Source: a virus (lineage: Duplodnaviria > Heunggongvirae > Uroviricota > Caudoviricetes). Taken from it: a DNA stretch of 27,610 nucleotides. The position numbers and the translations under genes are program-made. Below the pieces are notes generated by a model. The model was not told where the DNA came from. It saw nothing but the letters and a program-made list of their open reading frames with translations, and made no database searches. This document shows positions 1 to 25,080 of the stretch, in pieces; the stretch's first letter is position 1; each line of letters opens with the position of its first letter. The DNA lies in the IMG/VR virus record IMGVR_UViG_2529292919_000027; one strand, given 5' to 3'.

Positions 1-420
1 ATGACGGATTATCAGCCATACAGGAAAGGAACTGTGCTTGCCCCAACTGGACCATGCAATCATCTTCATGTGATTTGTAATGATCCTGTTTATTACCCCG
101 TTAACGATTGTTATTGTGTTTTAGTTGTTAATATTTCTAGTATCAAGGATGGTGTCCCCCACGATCCGTCTTGCGTCTTGAATTCTGGTGATCATCGCTT
201 TATCAAGCATCCAAGTTATGTTGTTTACGCTGAAGCTATAATTTGGCGAGTGGATAACATGGTTAGAAAGCAGCGATCGGGTGAGATTTCTGTTCATGAT
301 GATATGCCAGAAGCTACATTCAATAGAATTCTGGACGGTTTTGATATCTCTGATGAAGTTACGCCAAAGAACCTTAAATTTAAAAATAAATATTGCGTAT
401 CATCTATTGATGATGAGTAA
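1..420 (+). CDS. hypothetical Cys/His-rich protein, 139 aa, low-GC cargo; may begin upstream of the window
   Basis: ORF starts with ATG at position 1; AT-rich relative to phage backbone; convergent with the leftward early operon; no family recognised. Confidence 0.45.
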   Translation: MTDYQPYRKGTVLAPTGPCNHLHVICNDPVYYPVNDCYCVLVVNISSIKDGVPHDPSCVLNSGDHRFIKHPSYVVYAEAIIWRVDNMVRKQRSGEISVHDDMPEATFNRILDGFDISDEVTPKNLKFKNKYCVSSIDDE

Positions 421-459
421 ACAACAGGAATTGTTTCGGTATAACTTCTGGAGTTTTCT

Positions 460-633
460 ATGGAAGATCAAAAAGCAACCAAGCCACAGGTTAAGTTCGA
501 CACAATGAAAGCATTCGTAGGTATGGGTGCTGCTGTTGAAGTTCTGATGAAGGCTGCTCCTAATGCGTTCACTCACGCTACTGTCTCTGGTAAAGAGCAG
601 CAGGGTAAGCTTCGTCGTCTCAAAGCAGCATGA
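460..633 (+). CDS. small hypothetical protein, 57 aa (Lys/Ala-rich)
   Basis: ATG at 460 preceded by GGAG about 7 nt upstream; stop at 631-633; followed directly by a strong intrinsic terminator; below the ORF-track size cutoff. Confidence 0.35.
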   Translation: MEDQKATKPQVKFDTMKAFVGMGAAVEVLMKAAPNAFTHATVSGKEQQGKLRRLKAA

Positions 634-652
634 TCATAGCTGGTGCTTTTTG

Positions 653-682
653 AAAACCCGCCTTCAGGCGGGTTTTTTCTTT
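653..682. terminator. bidirectional intrinsic terminator between convergent genes
   Basis: Stem aaacccgcc / ggcgggttt with 4-nt loop, T-run on + strand and A-run upstream (U-run for minus strand). Confidence 0.6.
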
Positions 683-962
683 AGTGATTTTCTTTGCCCT
701 TCTGTTTGACTGTTCTGACCTGTTCCCACTCGATACGTCCTTCTTCTCGCCTTTTGTCTATGTATTCCGCAAGATCCTGAATATTGATGCAACGTTTTGC
801 TTTTTGTGATGTGCCGATGCGATATGTTGGAACGGGCAACTTACAAGCGTTTGCTTTTGCTTCTGCCGTGGCTGGACTCATACCAAAGTACTTTTGGCTA
901 ACTGCTGAGAGTTCAATGTTTGGGGTATTGAATTCAGCCATCAGTAAAAACAAGGTGTTCAT
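681..962 (-). CDS. AlpA/PrtN-like excisionase-type DNA-binding protein
   Basis: Translation from MNTLFLLMAEF... resembles PrtN/AlpA family N-terminus; ORF track gives 681..989, internal ATG at 962 preferred. Confidence 0.5.
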   Translation of the reverse strand: MNTLFLLMAEFNTPNIELSAVSQKYFGMSPATAEAKANACKLPVPTYRIGTSQKAKRCINIQDLAEYIDKRREEGRIEWEQVRTVKQKGKENH

Positions 963-998
963 AATTTTCTCCATCAAAACCGGCTGCACCCGGGAAAA

Positions 999-1574
999 TC
1001 ATAATTCTGTGCTGGTGGCAGGAATTAATTTCTGCCAGATAGCGGAAACATATTTTGCCTGATGACGGGCATCAGCCAGGGCGTTGTGCCGTTCGCCATC
1101 GAAAGGCATGTCCATTTTGGGGTCGAATCCGATGGAACGCCCAAGCGTAACGATCGTGCGTACATCGTGGTCATTCCAGTACGCCCACGGGCAGATTTGT
1201 CCTGCTCGCTCGTAAGCTCCACGTAAAATTACGTTGTCGAAGGTGGCCCCGTTACCCCAGACTTTTAAATATTTCGTATTGTCTGCGTGCCGGTTAATGA
1301 AATGGTTTAGTTCTGAGAGAGCATCGCTGATCGACAAAGTATCATCAATACAGATTGCAGCTCGCGCTTCAGGGCTTTGTTTCAACCACCACAGGATGGT
1401 ATCGCCGTCAGGTGTAGCTCCTTGCTTCATAGCACTGTCTAGGCTGACAACCGCATAGAATTCTTGTCCGATGTCTCCGGTTTCTGGAGTGAAGAACACC
1501 GCGCCAATGGAAACGATCGGTGCATCCTTATTTTTCCCCATCGTCTCAAGGTCGATCATTAAGTTGTTCATCAC
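999..1574 (-). CDS. DnaQ-like DEDDh 3'-5' exonuclease
   Basis: Motifs IDLETMG (Exo I), WGNGATFD and HNALADA (Exo III) in translation; common in lambdoid early-left operons. Confidence 0.7.
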   Translation of the reverse strand: MMNNLMIDLETMGKNKDAPIVSIGAVFFTPETGDIGQEFYAVVSLDSAMKQGATPDGDTILWWLKQSPEARAAICIDDTLSISDALSELNHFINRHADNTKYLKVWGNGATFDNVILRGAYERAGQICPWAYWNDHDVRTIVTLGRSIGFDPKMDMPFDGERHNALADARHQAKYVSAIWQKLIPATSTEL

Positions 1575-6205: not shown

Positions 6206-6547
6206 TTTGCTGCTCCTCATCATATCGACCCTGCAAGGTCGGTTAGTTTCTCCACAAAACAGAGAAGAACACCTGCGGTGGCAGCCGCCCGGATGGATTG
6301 GGTTATGAGCCCGTCGTCCGGTGATGTTCTTCTCTGTTTTGTAAAAAGAGCGGTACCAGCCGGAAGCAAGTGTACAAACTGGTACCGCCAAAGCAGTGGC
6401 TGTTGTGGTGACCGGTGCTGATCTCCGGCTTGCGGTTATTTCAGACTCTCACGGGCGTTTAATTGCCCCGCCGAACAGCTCTTTTCCGCAATAGCTGCAA
6501 TGTCTTTCGCGCATCAGCCTGCGCATTCACCACAACTCTAAAAACAA

Positions 6548-8221: not shown

Positions 8222-9378
8222 ATAGTTTAACGGCAAATAACCGTTTGTCGCAACAGCTGGTGGTCAGCGTCGCTGAACACCTGTTGTTACGGCATGAATG
8301 CAGATTACCAAATCACCTGGCTGTAAGTAACCACAGAGAACTTTACCTGACTGTGGGGGGCGAGTTGTGCAGGAACTTAACCGCTGGTTTCGTGACGGAA
8401 GAGGGCTTTATGTCCATGTTATTCGTTGGGAGCCAGAAACACAGCGCGTTATCTATCTTCGCAAAGACTACCCGCATGAGTGCTTTAGTCCTTTGTGGAA
8501 ATTCAGGCGTGATTTTGTTGAGTGTGAAGGACCACCAGCATATTGATTCTGCAATTCCGGGACGTTACACTGCTCAGGCACCTTATAAAGCGGGTGCCGG
8601 GATTGGCGTCCTGAAATTGTCAACGGCGATGTATGACGCGCCAGCGTCTTTTTTATCGTCCGCATTTGCTCACATCCAGATTATGGTGGGCTGGGCGGGG
8701 GCACCGAAAGGTGCGCCGGTCTCCGTTGACGCCGGTTACGCCAACCCCGTCCAGTTCACCACCAGTGAAATTGGCGTTTCCGGTGGTGGAAGTTTTTCAC
8801 TGTCAACGGAGGCTGCCATCATGGCTACGATCCCAGCCCTCACTCAACCTGAAATCACCATTGACAACGGCCAGGCCGTTACCACTTCTTTGGCTGTTGC
8901 CAACTTCTTCTCCAAGCGTCACGACGATGTGCTGAAAAAGATCCGCACTCTGGATTGTTCCCCAGAGTTTTGTGCCCGCAATTTTGCGGAGACATCGATT
9001 TCGGTAAATCAACCGAACGGTGGTACACGCAAGCTCCCTTGCTATCAAATCACACGAGACGGTTTTGCGTTTCTTGCTATGGGTTTCACGGGTAAACGTG
9101 CTGCCCGGTTCAAAGAGGCATACATAAATGCCTTTAACCAGATGGAGAAACAGCTTTCAAAGCCCGCTGTACCGAGCGACGTTGCACATAACGCCAGCGT
9201 TCTCTGTTCCTACATTTCATCAATTCATCAGGTCTGGCTGCAGCAGCTTTATCCTATGTTGGCAAAAGCCGAATCTCCGCTGGCTGTTAGCTTATATGAC
9301 TATATTAATGATGCTTCGGCGCTGGCCAGTCTCATAAATTTGTCGCTGAACCCTTCAGAGGTAAGGGGGCGCAAATGA
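8218..9378 (+). CDS. Rha-family regulatory protein with about 200-aa N-terminal extension
   Basis: Rha-type motif block (NGQAVTTSLAVANFFSKRHDDVLKKIR...FKEAYINAFNQME) begins at internal ATG 8821 (GGAGG RBS); frame open from ATG 8218 which overlaps upstream stop. Confidence 0.55.
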   Translation: MNSLTANNRLSQQLVVSVAEHLLLRHECRLPNHLAVSNHRELYLTVGGELCRNLTAGFVTEEGFMSMLFVGSQKHSALSIFAKTTRMSALVLCGNSGVILLSVKDHQHIDSAIPGRYTAQAPYKAGAGIGVLKLSTAMYDAPASFLSSAFAHIQIMVGWAGAPKGAPVSVDAGYANPVQFTTSEIGVSGGGSFSLSTEAAIMATIPALTQPEITIDNGQAVTTSLAVANFFSKRHDDVLKKIRTLDCSPEFCARNFAETSISVNQPNGGTRKLPCYQITRDGFAFLAMGFTGKRAARFKEAYINAFNQMEKQLSKPAVPSDVAHNASVLCSYISSIHQVWLQQLYPMLAKAESPLAVSLYDYINDASALASLINLSLNPSEVRGRK

Positions 9379-13162: not shown

Positions 13163-14158
13163 GTGACCGTGAGAGCACTACTGACCCCTGAAATTGCCCC
13201 GCGTATGGGGATCGTATTGTTCAGGCCAGGTTCAGAGCTGATGCCCCTGTTTATGCAGGGGCGTGTCCTGCTGGAGCCAGAGCCGGAACGTTATTCATCT
13301 TTCGCCAGTGGTGCCGTTCCGGCGGCATCACAACCGCTGGCGGATGATCCTGCCGTTCGGACCGTGTTCCGCAATGAGGCAGTGATCCGTCGTGCTGGTG
13401 GCGTGGAATGTCTTGAAAGCTGGTTACTTCGTGAAAAAGGTTGCCAGTGGCCTCATTCCGACTGGCACAGCGAGAACATGACCACAATGCGACACACGCC
13501 GGGCGCAATCCGTCTGTGCTGGCACTGCGATAACCAGCTGCGCGATCAGTTCACGGAACGGCTGGAATCAATGGCAACGGATAACTGTACCCGCTGGGTG
13601 TTGTCTGTTGTGCGTCGGGATCTCGGTTTTGATGACAGTCACGTTGTGACAATGCCGGAACTGTGCTGGTGGCTGATTCGTAATGACCTGGCGGATGCCT
13701 TACCGGAAAGTGCAGCCCGTAAGGCACTGAGATTACCGAAGCCTGTTGTGCCGTCTGTCACCCGGGAAAGTGACCTTGTGCCTTCGGTTCCTGCCACCAG
13801 CATCATCCAGGATAAAGCGAAAAAGGTGCTGGCGCTGAAAGTGGATCCGGAGTCGCCGGAGTCTTTTATGTTACGCCCAAAACGTCGCCGCTGGGTTAAT
13901 GAAAAGTACACGCGCTGGGTTAAGACACAGCCGTGTGCATGTTGTGGAAAGCCCGCTGATGATCCCCACCACCTGATAGGCCACGGTCAGTGTGGAATGG
14001 GTACAAAAGCGCATGACCTTTTTGTGTTGCCTTTGTGCAGAAAGCATCACGACGAGCTGCATGCGGATACCGTGGCATTTGAAGAGAAGTATGGCTCTCA
14101 GCTGGAGCTGATATTTCGTTTTATCGATCGTGCGCTGGCAATTGGCGTACTGGCGTAA
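13163..14158 (+). CDS. DUF968 domain protein (YdfU-like)
   Basis: C-terminal CACCGKPADDPHHL...PLCRKHHDELH motif; GTG start. Confidence 0.55.
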   Translation: MTVRALLTPEIAPRMGIVLFRPGSELMPLFMQGRVLLEPEPERYSSFASGAVPAASQPLADDPAVRTVFRNEAVIRRAGGVECLESWLLREKGCQWPHSDWHSENMTTMRHTPGAIRLCWHCDNQLRDQFTERLESMATDNCTRWVLSVVRRDLGFDDSHVVTMPELCWWLIRNDLADALPESAARKALRLPKPVVPSVTRESDLVPSVPATSIIQDKAKKVLALKVDPESPESFMLRPKRRRWVNEKYTRWVKTQPCACCGKPADDPHHLIGHGQCGMGTKAHDLFVLPLCRKHHDELHADTVAFEEKYGSQLELIFRFIDRALAIGVLA

Positions 14159-14171
14159 GTGGAGAACGAGC

Positions 14172-14924
14172 ATGAACCTTGAAGCCTTACCGAAATATTA
14201 CTCCCCGAAATCTCCAAAACTGAGCGATGACGCACCGGCGACAGGCTCTGGTGGTTTAACAATTACGGATGTGATGGCTGCGCAGGGGATGGTGCAGTCA
14301 AAAGCACCGCTTGGGTTTGCTTTATTCCTGGCAAAAGTTGGTGTTCAGGATCCTCAGTTTGCGATTGAAGGTCTGCTCAATTACGCGATGGCACTGGATA
14401 ACCCGACATTGAATAAATTGAGTGAAGAAACCCGGCTACAGATCATTCCTTACCTTGTGAATTTTGCCTTTGCTGATTATTCCAGGTCTGCGGCAAGTAA
14501 GGCTCGCTGTGAGCATTGTGCTGGTACTGGATTTCATAATGTATTGCGCGAGGTGGTGAAACACTCCAGAAGCGGGGAATCTGTTATTAAGGAAGAGTGG
14601 GTGAAGGAACTATGTCAGCATTGTCATGGTAAGGGAGAAGTCAGCACAGCATGCAGAGGGTGCAAGGGTAAAGGTATTGTCCTGGATGAAAAAAGAACCC
14701 GGCTTCATGGCACGCCTGTTTATAAGGTTTGTGGGCGTTGCAATGGAAACCGGTTTAGCCGTTTACCAACCACACTGGCGCGGCTTCATGTCCAGAAGCT
14801 GGTACCAGACCTGACGGATTATCAGTGGTACAAAGGATATGCAGATGTCATTGATAAACTGGTTACAAAGTGCTGGCAGGAAGAAGCATATGCAGAGATA
14901 CAATTGAGAAAGGTGACAAGATAA
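14172..14924 (+). CDS. antitermination protein Q-like (long Q family)
   Basis: Multiple CxxC zinc motifs (CEHCAGTG, CQHCHGKG, CRGCKGKG, CGRCNGNR); last nin-region gene before terminators and late genes. Confidence 0.6.
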   Translation: MNLEALPKYYSPKSPKLSDDAPATGSGGLTITDVMAAQGMVQSKAPLGFALFLAKVGVQDPQFAIEGLLNYAMALDNPTLNKLSEETRLQIIPYLVNFAFADYSRSAASKARCEHCAGTGFHNVLREVVKHSRSGESVIKEEWVKELCQHCHGKGEVSTACRGCKGKGIVLDEKRTRLHGTPVYKVCGRCNGNRFSRLPTTLARLHVQKLVPDLTDYQWYKGYADVIDKLVTKCWQEEAYAEIQLRKVTR

Positions 14925-15426: not shown

Positions 15427-15502
15427 GGCCCTTTAGCTCAGTGGTGAGAGCGAGCGACTCATAATCGCCAGGTCGCTGGTTCAAATCCAGCAAGGGCCAC
15501 CA
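15427..15502 (+). tRNA. tRNA-Ile2 (anticodon CAU; Met-type anticodon, ileX/ileZ-like)
   Basis: Cloverleaf by eye: acceptor ggccctt/aagggcc, D-arm gctcagtggtgagagc, anticodon loop ctCATaa, T-arm ggttcaaatcc, CCA end; near-identical to E. coli ileX as recalled. Confidence 0.8.
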
Positions 15503-15509
15503 TCACATA

Positions 15510-15586
15510 CCGCCATTAGCTCATCGGGATAGAGCGTCAGCCTTCGAAGCTGGCTGTGCGGGGTTCAAGTCCCCGATGGCGGTCCA
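15510..15586 (+). tRNA. tRNA-Arg (anticodon UCG)
   Basis: Acceptor ccgccat/atggcgg, anticodon loop ctTCGaa, T-arm ggttcaagtcc, CCA end. Confidence 0.75.
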
Positions 15587-15599
15587 TTATCAGCATCAT

Positions 15600-15676
15600 G
15601 CGTTGTTAGCTCAGTCGGACAGAGCAATTGCCTTCTAAGCAATCGGTCACTGGTTCGAATCCAGTACAACGCGCCA
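15600..15676 (+). tRNA. tRNA-Arg (anticodon UCU)
   Basis: Acceptor gcgttgt/acaacgc, anticodon loop ctTCTaa, T-arm ggttcgaatcc, CCA end. Confidence 0.75.
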
Positions 15677-16874: not shown

Positions 16875-17047
16875 CGGTAAAACTGCGCCTGGCTGTGGCT
16901 GCACTCCTGCTGTTTCTGGTGGTGATGGTGGATTTCACCAGCAGAATCATGTCGGTGCTGGCGGATGGGGTGCTGGTCTGCGGCATTGTGGTATTGCTGT
17001 GGCCGGTGATAAAAAGAAACAGCCTGCATAATGCTTGATTTTTTTAT
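16871..17047 (+). CDS. small membrane protein (58 aa, two predicted TM segments) coupled to TerB-like gene
   Basis: GTG overlapping TerB stop (GTGA); two hydrophobic stretches; short, so uncertain. Confidence 0.4.
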
Positions 17048-17352
17048 TTGCTGTTTATTAAAAATACTACTGCATGGTGAATCCCCCTGTGCGGAGGGGC
17101 GATCAGCAACCAGGTATATGGGATAATCGCGGATTCAGGTGCTGATACTGAATTCACCGGGAGGCACCCGGCACCATGCTTTGCCGCAAAAGTGTTGTTT
17201 CTGTTTTTCTCAAACTATCATCGTTATCCCTTTATTTCCGGCTGCGCATGGCGTGGCCTTTTTTTTACGACCAGCCACTGGCAGATGGCCATCCTGTAAT
17301 TTGATTCCGGTTCCGGCTTTTTAACTCTGTTCCTGTACACGGGAGAAATTCG

Positions 17353-24166: not shown

Positions 24167-24516
24167 GTTTTGTTGATGCGCCGTATCGTCGCTGTATTCC
24201 CTCATTAACAGAGACCGCAGCCCGACAGGGAGACTCCTCTGCGCGAGTGTGCGGGGATAATCAAAAACGATACACACCGGGGTTTACCGCGTTAACGGAG
24301 CGCGGCGTTGTCCCCTCATAGTCGCCTGTCCGGTGCGATGGTGGAAGAAGCCGGATGTTTATCACTATTAATTGATGACACAGAAATGGATTCATTGAAT
24401 TTCAGCACGTTTTTGTATTCGTGTTATTGAACATCTGTTTATTTTACTTTTAACATATTGATAATAAAAAGAGCTGTAAATCTTTAGATGAGTCGATTTT
24501 GTCCGGGGAAGTTCAA

Positions 24517-24657
24517 ATGGATTTTATGCTGACGGTTTCTGGTGTGGTTATCCTGTCCATTGCTTATACTGCAGATAAATATGGCTGCCATTTGTTATCA
24601 CGTATTGGCGCTTATTGTTCGTTGATGCTGATTTTCTCGTCGCTTTTTTTTGAGTAA
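24517..24657 (+). CDS. possible small hydrophobic peptide (46 aa)
   Basis: ATG after GGGGA RBS; possible extended -10 TGATAAT upstream; AT-rich island. Confidence 0.25.
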   Translation: MDFMLTVSGVVILSIAYTADKYGCHLLSRIGAYCSLMLIFSSLFFE

Positions 24658-24789
24658 GTTATATTAATTATAACAAATAATTTTCTGTGTTATTTTTTCA
24701 GGCTATCCCGTCAGAGGGGAAGCCTGTACTGCCGGGGAGCGAATGGAAAACTGATGTGTCCGGTAACTGCGTGTTCTGTGAACACCATG

Positions 24790-24975
24790 TTACTTAATTA
24801 TGTAATTCATACCCGAACTCTCTGTTGACAGCCTTCTTCTGCAGGCTTCAATAACCCACGCTGAAAAGTTTCCTGAACCTTTCAGATCAAGAGCGATGTT
24901 AATTTGTTCAATCATCTGGTTTGGAAATCGGATGTTGCGGGTTGTTGTTCTGCGGGTTCTGTTCTTTGATGACAT
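24790..24975 (-). CDS. ribbon-helix-helix (CopG/Arc-like) DNA-binding protein
   Basis: Basic N-terminus, predicted beta-strand TRNIRFP then two helices; GGGGA RBS; palindromic site upstream. Confidence 0.5.
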   Translation of the reverse strand: MSSKNRTRRTTTRNIRFPNQMIEQINIALDLKGSGNFSAWVIEACRRRLSTESSGMNYIIK

Positions 24976-25037
24976 AATGTTTCCCCATATTCAGTGTTGC
25001 TGATTTGTATTATCTGAAGTTGCTTTTACGTTAATTT

Positions 25038-25080
25038 GACGCAGATCAATTAATACGATACCTGCGTCATAATTGATTAT
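25038..25080. promoter_or_regulatory. nested palindrome upstream of the RHH gene (candidate operator)
   Basis: gacgcag ... ctgcgtc and atcaattaat ... ataattgat inverted repeats. Confidence 0.3.

Follow-up and report, generated by a model that had tools for sequence, protein, structure and literature searches.

The viral record IMGVR_UViG_2529292919_000027 (Caudoviricetes) is a stretch of 27,610 nt, hereafter called the window. Its first gene, ORF139, occupies positions 1-420 on the + strand and encodes a protein of 139 aa. Herein, we report that ORF139 is very probably panT, the toxin gene of a type II PanA-PanT toxin-antitoxin (TA) module, which is carried as cargo near the attachment site of a lambdoid Escherichia coli prophage integrated in dusA. 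The original prediction, made from the window alone, could not place the 139-aa protein in a known family and grouped its gene with the small downstream gene ORF57 (57 aa) in a two-gene cassette. The protein can now be assigned to PanT cluster T6, with a MazF/PemK-like predicted fold, and the unit that emerges is panA-panT.

The sequence upstream of ORF139 was taken from the prophage of E. coli O103 RM8385 and from phage Lys8385Vzw. Window 1-1000 is 100% identical both to the RM8385 chromosome and to Lys8385Vzw. In these records, the prophage is integrated in dusA, and the integrase lies at the opposite prophage end. Upstream of ORF139, a separate ORF in another frame encodes a protein of 190 aa (L001:5432-6004), which matches the Pfam family SocA_Panacea (PF13274; E value 2.2e-19; 70.9 bits, cut-off 25.7) and is named 'Panacea domain-containing protein' in RefSeq. 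It consists of a standalone Panacea/DUF4065 domain and a C-terminal tail of ~50 aa, and represents the Panacea antitoxin gene panA. Its stop codon (TGA, + strand) occupies window 2-4, and the ATG at position 1 therefore overlaps the end of panA by 4 nt (ATGA). The original prediction would have been refuted had ORF139 been the C-terminus of a larger known gene such as an integrase, or had it resembled a characterised housekeeping protein; neither turned out to be so. The integrase assignment was rejected, as the upstream ORF is separate and the integrase is located at the other end of the prophage.

The start codon of the toxin gene is annotated in two ways. In RefSeq/PGAP, the start is GTG 34, giving a protein of 128 aa (WP_014640052.1), whereas the phage GenBank records use ATG 1, giving 139 aa. 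Because P6, G10, and T11, all encoded upstream of GTG 34, are conserved or invariant across 24 homologues, and because the first β-strand predicted by AlphaFold2 (AF2) starts at residue 10, ATG 1 rather than GTG 34 appears to be the true start. The original prediction had held that ATG 1 might be a true start or that the operon might run upstream of the window, and both turn out to hold, with a conserved N-terminus and panA upstream. Besides the 139-aa toxin (window 1-417), the 90%-identity protein cluster includes Panacea proteins of 190 aa and a 'DUF4065' protein of 232 aa (P0293), a sign of mis-clustering that would stem from read-through or fused gene calls over the ATGA overlap.

The linkage between the two genes extends well beyond E. 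coli. A profile of the 139-aa family was searched against 185,579 species genomes, one per species, and 28 PanT loci were obtained. In all 22 loci with a readable upstream region, a PanA homologue of 169-227 aa was located directly upstream on the same strand, with blastp E values of 8e-13 to 6e-118 to E. coli PanA. The panA-panT junction was a 4-nt overlap in 11 loci and a gap of at most 27 nt otherwise. The loci are distributed over four proteobacterial classes and were found in Enterobacterales, Methylococcales, Piscirickettsiaceae, Sutterella, and Burkholderiales, as well as in Sphingomonadales, Acetobacteraceae, Hyphomicrobiales, and Rhodobacteraceae. Under the FlaGs criteria of Kurata et al. 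(two genes no more than 100 nt apart in at least two species), panA-panT qualifies as a pair. When identities to the E. coli pair were compared, those of PanA and PanT co-varied (Spearman 0.84, n=21), which fits a co-inherited pair. The pair was also present in temperate phages of Yersinia, Vibrio, Klebsiella, and Pseudomonas. Pseudomonas phage Sirocco (OR683410) carries an intact homologue of PanT (132 aa; L033:1486-1884) after a PanA gene; this homologue is unannotated, and the annotation has instead a 44-aa ORF on the opposite strand (1741-1875).

The assignment to a toxin cluster was made by comparison with the PanA-PanT systems defined by Kurata et al. in 2022, who validated ten pairs (PMC8832971). 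In Dataset S1 of that study, toxin cluster T6 has the order antitoxin|toxin with overlaps of -4 or -1, and its members include toxins from Proteus vulgaris, Pluralibacter gergoviae, Pantoea septica LMG 5345, Yersiniaceae bacterium 2016Iso4, and Pseudomonas moraviensis (PMC8832971). The toxin of our L007 locus was identified by exact-sequence look-up as WP_101821906.1 (55% identical to ORF139, E value 3e-49), which is the Yersiniaceae bacterium 2016Iso4 toxin listed in T6 (PMC8832971). Our L008 locus is that of Pantoea septica LMG 5345, and the enterobacterial T6 toxins of these two loci are 55-56% identical to ORF139. The member from P. moraviensis is the one with published experiments: this PanT is toxic in E. 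coli, is rescued by its PanA and co-purifies with it, selectively blocks incorporation of 35S-methionine, causes a weak and probably indirect membrane depolarisation, and gives an HHpred match to EndoA/PemK/MazF (PMC8832971). According to the cloning primers, it starts with MPGNIL and ends with IRQNNF, and its PanA starts with MIFSEQKVAQ (PMC8832971). The exact P. moraviensis PanT sequence was sought, and the proteins recovered were close Pseudomonas relatives that start with MPGNIL and end with FIRQNGF; they are 44% identical to ORF139 (E value 1e-33), and their PanA also starts with MIFSEQKVAQ and is 49% identical to E. coli PanA. The searched parts of the Kurata 2022 and Ernits 2023 supplements did not contain the accessions of E. 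coli PanA, ORF139, or ORF57. Judged by these sequence comparisons, ORF139 appears to be a PanT of cluster T6, that is, the toxin of an already catalogued kind of TA pair.

The family around ORF139 appears to be sizeable. A word-indexed search gave 62 clusters, and a family hidden Markov model run against 1.84 billion cluster representatives gave 2,679 matches at E ≤ 1e-3 and 908 at E ≤ 1e-10. ORF139 itself matched none of the models in Pfam, NCBIfam, or PADLOC, and PHROG 19071 (function unknown) was the only match; Pfam likewise gave no match for 23 homologues. Scans of ORF139 and ORF57 against Pfam, NCBIfam, PADLOC, and PHROGs also returned chance-level matches such as ICMT and DapC, which were rejected.

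Conservation was then assessed in 201 diverse members of the family. His21 was present in 99.5% of them, and Asp55, Cys58, His65, and Tyr76 in 98.5% each; Phe67, Ser72, Gly113, and Ser117 were also near-invariant. Ser or Thr occupied position 46 in 91% and position 47 in 98.5%. Every family-invariant residue is present in ORF139. The N-terminal Cys/His cluster that had drawn attention at first sight is thus conserved in part, with His21 being invariant, but His23 and Cys26 conserved in 61% and 37%, respectively. The R-x6-H stretch noted earlier is no motif: position 92 is A, Q, E, D, or K, and position 99 is His in 43% of the members.

Structure prediction and profile comparison, both of which had been suggested as checks, gave a confident MazF-like model and a non-significant profile match. 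The AF2 model, built on 24 sequences (pLDDT 89.4, pTM 0.83), is a β-barrel with strands at residues 10-16, 19-25, 30-32, 37-47, and 72-83, followed by three helices. In a Foldseek search of the PDB, the top 50 matches were all MazF (probability ~1, TM-score ~0.6 on the target), and among viral models the best matches were PemK-like proteins and endoribonucleases. The fold of ORF139 is thus predicted to be MazF-like, but the sequence comparisons do not place the protein in the PemK family. The model has the SH3-like barrel of the MazF/CcdB type. An alternative reading, in which ORF139 would poison DNA gyrase in the manner of CcdB and would not inhibit translation, is highly improbable; neither CcdB as the closest structural neighbour nor DNA replication as the target was found for ORF139.

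In the working that we propose for the module, panA and panT are translationally coupled through the ATGA overlap. By analogy with the characterised relative, PanA of the E. coli locus would bind and silence PanT in the lysogen, and once PanA is lost or displaced, free PanT would shut down translation. As judged from the fold and the literature, the block would most likely be achieved by cutting of RNA in the MazF-like groove. The module would be transcribed from its own promoter region to the terminator at 652-677, and since this direction is opposite to that of the lytic early operon, it may be regarded as a moron expressed in the lysogen. The module might be of benefit in one of two ways, by defending against other phages through abortive infection or by stabilising the prophage. 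The tests for toxicity and phage exclusion suggested in the original prediction were thus aimed in a sensible direction.

Several results weigh against this reading. The assignment of toxicity, neutralisation, and RNase activity relies on a relative of ~44% identity, and the published effect of this P. moraviensis relative is inhibition of translation, not cleavage of RNA (PMC8832971). Among the 25 PanTs tested by Kurata et al., eight were non-toxic in E. coli (PMC8832971), so toxicity of ORF139 is not guaranteed. The likeness to MazF is confined to the structural comparison, where the Foldseek E values were 4e-3 or weaker. Neither ORF139 nor its homologues matched MazF/PemK in Pfam, the family profile gave chance matches at E values of 0.3-0.5 against PDB sequences, and hhalign gave probabilities of 0.1-0.3% against four MazF/Kid/EndoA sequences, with either a 24- or a 201-sequence alignment. 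A profile of these four sequences finds MazF, Kid, and EndoA chains in the PDB at E values of 1e-42 to 1e-52; with this 4-sequence MazF profile, the HHpred match published for the P. moraviensis member (PMC8832971) was not reproduced. The near-invariant His21, Asp55, Cys58, His65, and Tyr76 differ from the Arg/Thr pair of MazF, and the chemistry may therefore differ. No convincing operator-like repeats were found upstream of panA, and the only promoter-like site there matched the consensus at 9/12 positions, no better than shuffled sequence. Lastly, no PADLOC model matched PanA or PanT, and a literature search for experiments on a defence role of DUF4065 systems in E. coli gave none.

The same residues lead to another explanation, which we regard as unlikely. 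PanT would have a MazF scaffold and be kept in check by PanA, but it would not be a MazF-type RNase; His21, Asp55, Cys58, and His65 would form a metal site or a catalytic centre of the Cys-His-Asp type, and translation would be blocked via another reaction, for example metal-dependent cleavage or covalent modification of a component of translation. The near-invariance of these residues and of Tyr76 is consistent with this, as are the lack of a conserved counterpart of the catalytic Arg29 of MazF in the ORF139 family, the lack of a MazF counterpart for the Asp/Cys/His trio, and the non-significant profile match. The published effects of the relative, translation inhibition and an unexplained weak membrane depolarisation (PMC8832971), would also be compatible. 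However, a non-significant yet topologically sensible hhalign alignment places His21 beside Arg29 and Ser46/Ser47 on Thr52/Thr53 of MazF. This placement would fit a His-for-Arg variant of the MazF RNase site, which is accordingly at least as likely. More speculatively, and with a low probability in our estimate, T6 PanTs might combine the MazF fold with His21/Asp55/Cys58/His65 (and Tyr76) in place of Arg/Thr, perform a reaction that is novel for the fold, and serve in abortive-infection defence upon perturbation of PanA. If so, the reaction could be, for example, metal-dependent cleavage or modification of a component of translation, and PanT would be released by an incoming phage.

The pair could also be a decayed or inert passenger in E. 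coli, with a non-toxic PanT that has no function in the lysogen. The share of non-toxic PanTs among those tested and the lack of matches in defence databases would agree with this. However, neither ORF is disrupted, and their identity among many E. coli lineages is 99% or higher. Of 5,426 complete E. coli genomes, 193 (~3.6%) contain 80% or more of window 1-1000. In addition, all family-invariant residues are present in ORF139, and the tight translational coupling has been kept. An inert passenger is therefore improbable, and a PanA-controlled PanT is preferred.

To delimit the cargo, Lys8385Vzw was compared with phage mEp460, which shares the integrase/attP region and the region from ORF57 through the xis and exo genes, and has a different gene, of 177 aa, in between. 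In blastn, homology between the two phages stops at L002 5238 and resumes at 6447, corresponding to window 447, and megablast of the window against mEp460 covers 447-1000 only. The breakpoints are located ~194 bp upstream of panA and 13 nt before the start of ORF57. The GC content is 0.391 in the upstream region, 0.431 in panA, and 0.383 in panT, compared with 0.50 in the whole window, where a value as low as that of panT occurs in 1.7% of 420-nt windows. On account of the mEp460 breakpoints, the exchanged segment of ~1.2 kb comprises the upstream region, panA, and panT; it is low in GC and ends at window 446, so that window 1-446 is its right part. The idea of a separately acquired, AT-rich moron is hence retained for panAT, on the basis of the breakpoints and GC content, but not for ORF57, which has a GC content of 0.471 and lies beyond 446/447. 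Upstream of panA, next to attP, the phage has a short 5' fragment of dusA (L001:5074-5178; L032:2074-2196), which is typical of dusA-targeting integrases that restore the 5' end of the gene upon integration.

ORF57 (460-633, + strand; GGAG at 450-453) has a backbone-like GC content and belongs to PHROG 2741 (E value 1e-34, function unknown). Its relatives form 48 clusters, all from Enterobacterales, with a fixed length of ~57 aa and the invariant core KFDTMKAFAGMGAAVEVLMKAAPNAF. The AF2 model was poor (pLDDT 63), with one helix at residues 15-32. A self-contained module of ORF139 and ORF57, for example a toxin and a small downstream partner, could be argued for from their arrangement, since 39 nt separate the two ORFs, both of which are read from the + strand towards a common terminator, and since the exact ORF57 allele occurs with panA-panT in 10 of 10 cases among the matches listed. 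Nevertheless, tblastn of the 27 other PanT loci gave no ORF57 homologue, mEp460 as well as Salmonella and Enterobacter prophages carry ORF57 but no PanT, and the breakpoint at 446/447 separates the two ORFs, which also differ in GC content (0.383 and 0.471). We thus give such a module next to no probability, and the two-gene cassette proposed at the outset gives way to panA-panT, with ORF57 outside the replaced segment as a separate and conserved backbone gene that is not part of the TA pair.

Where ORF57 occurs without PanT, it stands beside a gene of 177-179 aa, the product of which is similar to mEp460 gp23 and has no Pfam or NCBIfam match. In Salmonella dusA prophages, ORF57 follows the 177-aa gene at the same attL-proximal place, and Enterobacter hormaechei prophages carry ORF57 with a homologue of 179 aa (66% identical) between Q-region genes and a methylase/lysis block. 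Such pairs were found at L031:2281-3187, L044:2774-3674, and L052:2283-3174. Since it is found at two different prophage positions, the pair of 177 and 57 aa thus behaves as a mobile unit of its own, and panAT has displaced the larger gene in the present phage. In a Salmonella prophage (L048:3881-4348), ORF57 and the excisionase gene are separated by an inserted gene for a 155-aa protein with an XRE-type helix-turn-helix and a 2TM domain; this insertion is a second variable point in the region.

An intrinsic terminator hairpin at 652-677 closes the + strand transcript. On this strand, a T-run follows the hairpin, which is G+C-rich and has an 11-bp stem (ΔG -19.3 kcal/mol, z -3.2). The minus-strand fold has -18.1 kcal/mol (z -4.3) and is followed by just TTTTC, and a consensus terminator scan calls the hairpin on the + strand alone. 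The terminator had been described as bidirectional; the strong hairpin is real, but the minus strand has no proper T-run, and by the consensus scan the terminator appears clearly unidirectional. The convergent arrangement of the 139-aa and 57-aa ORFs with a leftward early operon was confirmed, as were the minus-strand genes to the right of the terminator. These include a PrtN-family excisionase-like gene (681-962/989, minus strand; PF11112, E value 4e-23), a gene for an Rv2179c-like 3'-5' exonuclease (999-1574, minus strand; E value 1e-75), and DUF551 and Ea22-like genes.

Elsewhere in the window, three tRNA genes (Met-CAT, Arg-TCG, and Arg-TCT) are located at 15427-15676, where the GC content is low, and a zinc-finger-rich, Q-like ORF (14130-14924) lies upstream of them. 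The cluster resembles that preceding the toxin/lysis region of Stx-type lambdoid phages. Matches above the Rfam gathering threshold were obtained for isrK (8578-8654), C4 antisense RNA (8679-8766), and STnc100 (17046-17215); the prophage may thus have an antisense immunity element of the P1/P7 type or an anti-Q element. A second low-GC patch (0.36-0.40) at 24250-25050, between an Rz-like lysis gene and the small terminase region, has small ORFs only, including a 61-aa ORF on the minus strand (24790-24975), and is possibly another moron slot.

These results have direct consequences for annotation. PanT (T6) is now an available name for the 'hypothetical protein' that ~3.6% of complete E. coli genomes encode. 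Its RefSeq start is to be corrected, and the toxin gene and the neighbouring Panacea gene should be annotated jointly as a TA pair. The carriers include O157, O103, and other Shiga toxin-producing E. coli (STEC) strains. Moreover, the attL-proximal slot of dusA lambdoid prophages can be viewed as an exchangeable cargo site, with panAT here and the pair of 177 and 57 aa elsewhere.

Three known systems can be compared with this locus. PanA shares the Pfam SocA_Panacea domain with SocA, the founding DUF4065/Panacea antitoxin, which belongs to the SocA-SocB system of Caulobacter crescentus. The toxin SocB has no relationship to MazF and acts by blocking the β-clamp of DNA polymerase, and SocA serves as a ClpXP adaptor (type VI). 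Direct-binding type II behaviour has been published for PanAT pairs (PMC8832971). In structure-based comparison with MazF/PemK/Kid/EndoA, ORF139 reaches an identity of 7-17%, and neither sequence nor profile searches give a significant match; ORF139 has an additional C-terminal helix (122-131) and a longer region from strand 3 to strand 5, which bears Asp55, Cys58, and His65, and the antitoxin is PanA instead of MazE/PemI. The closest likeness is to the T6 PanAT systems, exemplified by that of P. moraviensis. In both, panA comes first with an overlap of -4 or -1, PanA is a standalone Panacea protein ('noNTD') with the matching N-terminus MF/IFxExKVAQMAAY, and the toxins are ~132-139 aa, with identities to the Pseudomonas members of 44-48% for the toxin and 49% for PanA. 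Whereas the P. moraviensis pair is classed as 'NotPhage' (PMC8832971), the E. coli copy is phage-borne and located beside attL of a dusA prophage.
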